17,427 nt of DNA from Escherichia coli (GTDB lineage Bacteria > Pseudomonadota > Gammaproteobacteria > Enterobacterales > Enterobacteriaceae). The notes under the pieces were generated by a model. The model was given only the letters and a program-made list of their open reading frames with translations. It made no database searches and was not told where the DNA came from. Positions 8,670-9,916 of the stretch are shown here, piece after piece (position 1 is the first letter of the stretch; every line of letters begins with the position of its first letter). Made by a program: the position numbers and the translations under genes. Location of the stretch: assembly GCF_003334305.1 (NCBI RefSeq), contig NZ_QOWS01000040.1; one strand, written 5' to 3'.

Positions 8670-8677
8670 TGTTGTGG

Positions 8678-9590
8678 TCAACTAAAACTGGCCTCCGCGT
8701 TAGAGTTTTTCCAGTATCGGTTTTCTGATTCGTTTGGTGGTAACCCACCATTATATTCGTGCGGTCTTAGTGCGCTGTAATATCCAACGATATAGTCCGT
8801 TATTGCGTGAGCTGCATCGCTGAAGCTTACATAGCCCGTCGCTGGCACCCATTCGTTCTTCAGACTCCTGAAGAAGCGCTCCATTGGGCTGTTATCCCAG
8901 CAGTTTCCACGCCGACTCATACTCTGCCTGATCCGGTATCGCCACAGTAACTGCCGGAACTGCCTGCTCGTATAATGACTGCCTTGATCGCCTGGAACAT
9001 CACCCCGACGGGCTTACCACGGGTTTCCCATGCCATTTCCAGTGCTTTCATGGTAAGCCTGCTGTCCGGCGAGAACGACATGGCCCAGCCCACTGGTTTT
9101 CTTGCGAACAGGTCGAGAACAACGGCGAGGTACGCCCAGCGCTTACCCGTCCAGATATAGGTCACATCACCGCACCACACCTGATTTGGTTCCGTTACGG
9201 CGAACTGTCGCTCAAGATGATTCGGGATAGCAACGTGCTCATGACCGCCACGCTTATACCGGTGAGTCGGCTGCTGGCAACTGACCAGCCCCAGCTCTTT
9301 CATGAGTCTGCCAGCAAGCCAGTGCCCCATCTGGTAGCCTCTCTGGGTTGCCATTGTGGCGATGCTTCTTGCTCCGGCAGAGCCGTGGCTGATGCCATGC
9401 AGTTCAAGTACCTGGCTGCGTAATACAGCCCGTCTGCCGTCTGGTTTTTCAGGACGGTTTTTCCAGTATTTGTAGCTGCTGCGATGGACCCCGAACACAT
9501 GGCAGAGAGTGGCCACAGGATAACGCGCCCTGAGTTTCCCGATTATCGAAAACTGTTCAGGGAGTCTGACATCAAGAGCGCGGTAGCCTT
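8678..9590 (-). pseudogene. IS3-family transposase OrfB (DDE integrase domain), disrupted by frameshifts
   Basis: The transposase catalytic region is split across two frames: track ORF 8917-9516 (…[36 protein letters not shown]…) and track ORF 8678-8920 (…[23 protein letters not shown]…). Near 8990 both frames give transposase-like peptide (GVMFQ in one, [28 protein letters not shown] in the other), indicating a 1-nt indel. The slippery site reads TTAAAAAGG (five A) with a TAA stop immediately upstream in the orfB frame, so a -1 slip cannot fuse OrfA to OrfB. Confidence 0.8.
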
Positions 9591-9844
9591 TTTAATATTT
9601 CATTTTCCATTTCAATACGTTGTAGCTTTTTCCTGAGCTCACGGATTTCAATTTGTTCCGGGGTAATGGGGGAGGCTTTTGGTGTTTTTCCCTGCCGCTC
9701 ATCACGTAATTGTTTCACCCATCGCGTCATTGTGGAAAGGCCAACATCCATAGCTTTGGCGGCATCTGCCACCGTGTATTTCTGGTCAACAACCAGTTGA
9801 GCGGATTCGCGTTTAAACTCTGCGCTAAAATTTCTTTTTTTCAT
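9572..9844 (-). CDS. IS3-family transposase OrfA (helix-turn-helix), IS911 OrfA-like
   Basis: [56 protein letters not shown]… with a leucine-zipper-like C-terminus. The true start is probably the internal Met at 9844, not the track start at 9880. Ends at RLPRS*, 90 aa against 100 aa expected for IS911 OrfA, because the A-run at the frameshift site is one base short. Confidence 0.85.
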
Positions 9845-9916
9845 TGGAGCACCTGTGTTGTTCTGAGGTGAGCATATCACCTCTGTTCAGGTGGCCAAAT
9901 TCAGTGTGCCACTTCA

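Follow-up and report, generated by a model that had tools for sequence, protein, structure and literature searches.

A defective IS911/ISEc52 chimera at the fecE-distal boundary of the Escherichia coli fec module, most probably a dead remnant serving as portable homology for recombination

Background

IS911, the model element of the IS3 family from Shigella and E. coli, expresses its OrfAB transposase (382 aa) by -1 frameshifting at an A AAA AAG heptamer, encodes an OrfA of 100 aa and is bounded by inverted repeats (IRs) of 36 bp (PMC2909936). The presence of IS911 and IS1 around fecIRABCDE was already reported for E. coli K-12 and B (PMC5379014) and the accumulation of insertion sequences around fec is regarded as an indication that fec was acquired horizontally (PMC9249621). 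The K-12 annotation names its counterpart of the element described here an IS911B/insO pseudogene.

The window, meaning the whole stretch of 17,427 nucleotides analysed here, was 99.97% identical to E. coli UMB200201_11 (NZ_CP049343) and the coordinates of its features were transferred from the annotation of that genome (Table 1). RefSeq labels the same DNA of the element 'IS3 family transposase, frameshifted'. The element is a known kind of IS pseudogene and does not imply a new mechanism. The additions made here are modest; the body of the element was reassigned to ISEc52, a crossover was mapped within it and its defects were shown to be shared with other strains.

Identity and gene layout of the element

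In ISfinder practice, isoforms are assigned at roughly 95% nucleotide identity. Four intact RefSeq-annotated ISEc52 copies (1249 bp), located on plasmids of Serratia, E. coli, Klebsiella and Citrobacter, showed 98.2-98.3% full-length identity to the element while a RefSeq-annotated intact IS911 showed 93.5%. With the RefSeq-annotated copies as reference, the element was therefore above the isoform level for ISEc52 but below it for IS911. The similarity was not evenly distributed. IS positions 192-1247 had 8 changes from intact ISEc52 (two one-base deletions and 6 substitutions) and 80 from IS911, while IS positions 1-191 had 14 differences from ISEc52, 3 from IS911 and none from the 'acuI-linked fragment of E. 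coli CFT073. The first-pass annotation had described the element as IS911-like, which was correct for its IS3-family membership and for the left approximately 190 bp but not for the body, which is that of ISEc52. The first 200 bases are thus insufficient for naming an IS 'IS911'. Alignment to the intact copies also confirmed both of the indels that had been suspected.

Overall, the element shares the gene layout, the IRR tip and the length class of ISEc52. It differs from ISEc52 by the loss of one A from the A6G run and of one C from the DDE domain, both of which were retained in all four intact copies, by the absence of a target duplication, by a left part of 174-191 bp including the IRL that is of IS911 type, and by one extra substitution in the IRR. 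Compared to IS911, the element has the same architecture and its IRL and first about 190 bp are of IS911 type, but the IS911 heptamer is not preserved.

The conceptual OrfAB obtained after repair of the frames matched the NF033516 transpos_IS3 model with 379 bits (cut-off 160) over positions 1-368 of 369. Pfam domains in the repaired protein were HTH_Tnp_1 at residues 1-74 and rve at residues 218-316, which corresponds to the IS3-family layout of an orfA with the helix-turn-helix domain followed by an overlapping orfB with the DDE (rve) domain.

Table 1. Features of the window around the element, with positions counted from the first base of the window
Feature	Position	Strand	Evidence and remarks
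fecIRABCDE operon	235..7780	+	Mapped from the UMB200201_11 annotation; convergent with the IS
yjhV-like gene remnant	8338..8667	-	Adjoins the IRR; constant right-hand junction; K-12 counterpart annotated as a yjhV pseudogene
Defective full-length IS3-family element, 1247 bp, IS911/ISEc52 chimera	8670..9916	-	Nucleotide identities; RefSeq label
IRR, 36 bp, native ISEc52 type (TGTTGTGGTCAACTAAAACTGG...)	8670..8705	-	Tip common to the four intact ISEc52 copies
orfB, last segment, third frame (DQGSHYTS...MERFF...ASFS, then stop)	8678..8991	-	Translation; listed ORF 8678-8920
orfB, first segment, +1 frame relative to orfA; junk past the C deletion, stop at 8917	8917..9588	-	Translation
Loss of one C from the His codon that precedes the second catalytic Asp (HSDQG); A>G at 8992	8992..8993	-	Alignment
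orfA, open for 90 codons: 85 native residues, then RLPRS and stop	9572..9844	-	ORF list, translation
Frameshift site TTAAAAAGG, degenerate: A5G, with A AAA AAG shortened by one A	9587..9595	-	Alignment to intact copies
Crossover interval between IS911-type left part and ISEc52-type body, IS positions 174-192	9725..9743	-	Informative sites
IRL, 36 bp, IS911 type (TGAAGTGGCACAC...)	9881..9916	-	Identical to the IS911 IRL; ISEc52 has TGAAGTGGTTTAC
'acuI, 5'-terminal 115 codons of a gene for acrylyl-CoA reductase, truncated by the IRL	9917..10261	-	NF051456

Frameshift site and transposase domain

The slippery site had been read as shortened to five A in the first-pass annotation, and this was borne out by the alignment. 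The window has five A at 9589-9593 where intact ISEc52 and IS911 read TTAAAAAAGG (A6G), so the IS3-family heptamer for -1 frameshifting is absent. A standard -1 slip at A5G leads into the native OrfA tail of 15 residues and not into orfB. The orfB frame reads Y, stop, K-G-Y-R-A-L-D-V, with a TAA directly upstream, and this stop codon had been thought to block the formation of OrfAB. The TAA is indeed present in the orfB frame but it is not an obstacle by itself because OrfAB synthesis begins in the orfA frame and leaves it by slippage. What stands in the way is the altered frame relation of orfA and orfB together with the lost heptamer, and the TAA is a side effect of the frame change.

The change of frame in orfB that had been proposed near 8990, with transposase-like peptide on both sides, was found as a C deletion at 8992/8993 followed by the ORF at 8678-8920. 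Intact copies read GTTCCACAGCGAT at this site and the window reads GTTCCA-GGCGAT. In the repaired OrfAB the deletion affects residue 285, which belongs to the motif located at residue 283 and is covered by the rve domain. After the deletion, the second Asp (HSDQG) and the Glu (MERFF) are out of frame, which removes two of the three catalytic residues, and the element has no uninterrupted DDE domain. With the A6G run lost, orfB out of register and rve broken before the second Asp, standard transposase production is predicted to be blocked, in agreement with the first reading of the sequence.

Element ends and flanking bases

Read on the minus strand from 9916, the IRL tip was TGAAGTGG, and the IRR tip was TGTTGTGG at 8670, where the IRR reading begins TGTTGTGGTCAAC... 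The termini keep the 5'-TG...CA-3' inverted-repeat form of the IS3 family. No 3-bp duplication was found, as had been noticed earlier, since GCT adjoins the IRL and GAC adjoins the IRR.

The IRR differed at 4 of 36 positions, tip positions 3-4 among them, from IS911 and from two ISEc52-annotated variant copies. Such differences could be read as decay of the right end (TGTTG tip and other changes) that would prevent mobilisation even in trans. The four intact 1249-bp ISEc52 copies, however, end in ...GTTGACCACAACA as the element in the window does and also have the position-14 change, and two of them lie between perfect 3-bp duplications (GAC and TCC). In addition, about 100 plasmid records carried a TGTTG-type right end. 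The only IRR change specific to the fec lineage was one T>A at window 8694, in the subterminal region (IRR position 25). Decay of the IRR is therefore very unlikely, and as a block to trans-mobilisation it was rejected in favour of a native ISEc52 right end. Both ends look usable, and a co-resident ISEc52 or IS911 transposase might still mobilise the element.

The RefSeq 'ISEc52 family' was found to cover two right-end variants, ...CCACTTCA (IS911-like) and ...CCACAACA, which were ~1% different elsewhere. From these sequences, the element ends seem to have been exchanged between the IS911 and ISEc52 lineages. For the left end, the fec-linked copy of strain CEA106S had four substitutions in the IRL (locus 5003-5040), and the fec-linked copies of MSHS 472 and CEA106S had lost one further base from the ATGAAAAAAAG run where orfA starts. 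This A7 run is intact in the window and disrupted in MSHS 472 and CEA106S. The window lacks the left-end changes of these two strains because the left end of its element was replaced.

Chimeric structure of the element

Informative sites were defined with two parental types, the 'acuI-linked copy of CFT073 and the CEA106S copy linked to fec. A total of 35 informative sites were obtained, and all 15 sites at or before IS position 174 matched CFT073 while all 20 sites at or after position 192 matched the fec-linked copy. The chance of such a perfect segregation of 35 sites is P about 6e-10. IS positions 1-174 were identical to the 'acuI-linked copy in CFT073, and the switch from IS911 type to ISEc52 type was in register without an indel at the joint. 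The earlier suggestion that the element had served as a recombination breakpoint is supported by this chimera of IS911 (1-174) and ISEc52 (192-1247), in which the left part is that of the CFT073 'acuI-linked copy.

The 'acuI-linked IS911::IS30 fragment of the CFT073 type shares with the window the 'acuI-IRL junction, IS positions 1-174 and the IS1/decarboxylase-antiporter cluster. Unlike the window element, the CFT073 fragment continues as IS911 type past position 192, keeps A6G, is cut by IS30 at 334 and is not adjacent to fec. In which direction the exchange probably went, and whether it was one crossover or a gene-conversion tract, was judged from this three-way comparison.

The internal switch points between IS911 and ISEc52 varied among strains, at IS positions 174-192 in the window, 447-502 in E2865 and 727-759 in K-12 and B strains. 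The joints could also have come from events linked to transposition, namely one-ended transposition, an adjacent deletion, or an IS inserted beside another IS. IS3-family elements can cause adjacent deletions, the target duplication is absent, and IS30, IS600, IS1 and a group II intron were inserted in or around the element in relatives. An origin of this kind is nevertheless very improbable, as the switch is internal, in register and without an indel, as its position differs from strain to strain, and as in-register hybrids are not a product of transposition. We infer that the joints were produced by homologous recombination and not by transposition.

Copies of the element in other strains

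About 20 of thousands of copies were compared base by base. The C deletion and the IRR-yjhV junction were present in 14 of the 14 fec-linked copies sampled, all from independent assemblies and including K-12 MG1655, B strains, a bovine O-serogroup strain and environmental isolates. A5G was found in every uninterrupted fec-linked copy of the same lineage (UMB200201_11, MSHS 472, CEA106S and ATCC 43896) and in the K-12 5' fragment. The IRR-yjhV-fecE junction was detected in 2623 of 5426 complete E. coli genomes with a 301-bp probe that was fully covered. Comparison with the K-12 remnant flanking fec, which had been proposed in the first-pass annotation, showed the same C deletion, the same IRR junction and A5G in the 5' fragment.

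Under the error interpretation, both one-base deletions would be artefacts of sequencing or assembly (a miscalled homopolymer), with an intact and active IS. One of the deletions is in an A homopolymer, which is a classic error site. Against this, the C deletion was present in every one of the independent assemblies sampled including K-12 MG1655, A5G was present in the copies named above, PGAP marks each fec-linked copy as frameshifted, and exact A5G was found in 17 of 60 sampled records, with a single matching place in 14 of these 17. The probability of this interpretation is close to negligible. Since the C deletion and the junction are shared across strains, the indels are old and not assembly errors. 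The defects are ancestral to the fec-linked copy present in about half of E. coli genomes and are not specific to the window.

The left side of the element varied. The 'acuI left flank was found in the window and in about ten close relatives, UMB200201_11 and ATCC 43896 included. The left flank was a leuX-associated integrase in MSHS 472, shf/capU/virK in CEA106S and yjhE in K-12, while E2865 had an AbiJ-domain gene together with a hypothetical gene. The K-12 MG1655 IS911B/insO-insN pseudogene (KpLE2 region) has the right junction, C deletion and IRR of the window. Unlike the window element, the K-12 copy is interrupted by IS30D and a fragment of IS600, lacks positions 335-452, is of IS911 type up to position 727 and has yjhE instead of 'acuI at its left flank.

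Several insertions were observed in the copies. In close relatives with the gene arrangement of the window, a group II intron with ltrA was present at the identical position, IS 761/762 (window 9155/9156), namely in ATCC 43896 (locus coordinates 7723-9994), 3059 and E300010 (about 2166 in both). IS30 was inserted at IS 333/334 (window 9583/9584), 6 nt past the slippery run, in K-12, CFT073 and L16-131 with an apparent 2-bp AC duplication, and EC2641 also had IS30 at about IS position 333/334. Strain E2865 had an in-frame 3-nt insertion (GGCTAC-A-ACCGCG) exactly at the IS30 site (locus about 1735), which is possibly an IS30 excision footprint. The K-12 IS911B 5' fragment (locus 4126-4459) is of IS911 type yet has A5G, while the CFT073 fragment, interrupted by the same IS30 insertion, shows A6G; for K-12, either the deletion in the A run recurred or gene conversion transferred it. 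Finally, plasmids pNR379 and pYS427-1 carried the same truncated ISEc52 3' fragment (IS 827-1247) behind a DUF968 gene, with different right flanks and with the C deletion in only one of the two. The C deletion thus also occurs outside the fec-linked copies.

Mobility and residual coding

The sample of 60 records was drawn in even steps down the ranking of 3850 site-matching records, and by extrapolation about 1,100 records would have the exact A5G match. While exact-A5G records mostly had one matching place, A6G records often had 3-8. No exact A5G site was found in the representative genomes of 100,044 species (one each). In genomes with the identical arrangement, this element was usually the only IS911-like place in the chromosome, and the right junction of the fec-linked copies was always yjhV-fec in the sample of 14. 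Multiple copies or new sites of the same variant, as expected for an autonomous IS, were thus not found among these records. These results fit a non-autonomous, non-proliferating remnant, and from its sequence the element is predicted to be immobile by its own means.

A remaining coding function was also considered, in which +1 recoding still fuses OrfA to OrfB and a catalytically dead protein of 308 residues could bind IRs and regulate IS911/ISEc52 in trans. AGG is a rare codon that induces +1 shifting in E. coli; with AGG in the A site, tRNA-Lys can re-pair +1 on AAA, and the Ty1-like CUU AGG C logic serves as the model for such a slip. The deletion turned A AAA AAG into UUA AAA AGG C and orfB is exactly +1 to orfA, so a +1 slip after AAA would enter orfB, with the TAA lying upstream of the shift point. 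In addition, orfA is open with an intact start in the window chimera. However, most exact-A5G records had the site at a single place, A5G was absent from the representative genomes, the C deletion takes out two of the three catalytic residues, and MSHS 472 and CEA106S have a frameshift at the orfA start, which indicates no selection in the lineage to keep orfA. Recoding of this kind is highly unlikely. An extension of this idea, rated as exceedingly unlikely, is that a latent +1 'hungry codon' site might yield low levels of a 308-residue OrfA-OrfB' fusion that keeps the DNA-binding and multimerisation domains but lacks an active site, domesticated as a dominant-negative regulator. If true, OrfA-OrfB' would damp transposition of IS911/ISEc52 in roughly one in five E. 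coli strains.

Proposed history of the fec boundary

The element is most probably a dead, non-autonomous IS3-family remnant at the fecE-distal fec boundary that serves as portable homology for recombination. Its body would descend from an ISEc52 copy beside yjhV-fecE, which lost one A from the A6G heptamer and one C from the DDE domain and could then produce neither OrfAB nor a functional OrfB. Such a remnant would no longer move by itself but would provide portable homology at the boundary of fec, a horizontally spread module for ferric citrate uptake. Copies of IS911 and ISEc52 are about 93% identical to each other, and exchange with other copies of these elements, live or dead, by gene conversion or RecA-type recombination may have repeatedly swapped the left part of the remnant together with the DNA leftward of it. 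For the window, a crossover at IS 174-192 would have joined a CFT073-type 'acuI-IRL-IS911 left end to the fec-linked ISEc52 remnant and thereby put fec beside the IS1/decarboxylase-antiporter cluster. The hybrid ends (IRL of IS911, IRR of ISEc52) and the missing 3-bp duplication would both be explained by this crossover.

The IS on the fecE side of the fec module would accordingly be a fixed dead ISEc52 remnant and not IS911 proper, and the strain differences to the left of it would result from recombination with live IS911/ISEc52 copies. This is of use for annotating fec islands and for tracing the movement of fec among chromosomal islands and plasmids.

Gene neighbourhood

The acuI-like fragment that had been noticed on one flank was confirmed, with the AcuI model NF051456 (325 residues) matching over positions 1-114 (E 1.5e-51). 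To the left of 'acuI were a frameshifted IS1 and then a decarboxylase gene between two antiporter genes in the UMB200201_11 annotation. The chromosome around the window forms a mosaic genomic island, which also carries Ag43, malX, a CbtA/CbeA toxin-antitoxin pair and further IS copies. No Rfam family matched anywhere in the window at gathering thresholds.

On the right flank, the yjhV-like remnant had no family match in NCBIfam; the missing C-terminus of the 'acuI gene is not encoded there. A 137-codon ORF on the minus strand (window 8338-8751) begins within the IS at 8751 and extends across the IRR as far as the yjhV remnant. No stop codon interrupts the yjhV frame before the IS end, as expected for a gene whose 5' end was removed by the insertion.

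The stretch from IS1 to 'acuI was present in 404 of 5426 complete E. coli genomes, CFT073 included. The decarboxylase-antiporter cluster was beside IS1-'acuI in the three records examined (UMB200201_11, CFT073 and ATCC 43896). In the window, the cluster lies in 10879-17427 (UMB200201_11 locus 819-8122), with an Orn/Lys/Arg decarboxylase gene between two basic amino acid/polyamine antiporter genes. It has a defective IS1 on both sides and resembles a composite transposon.
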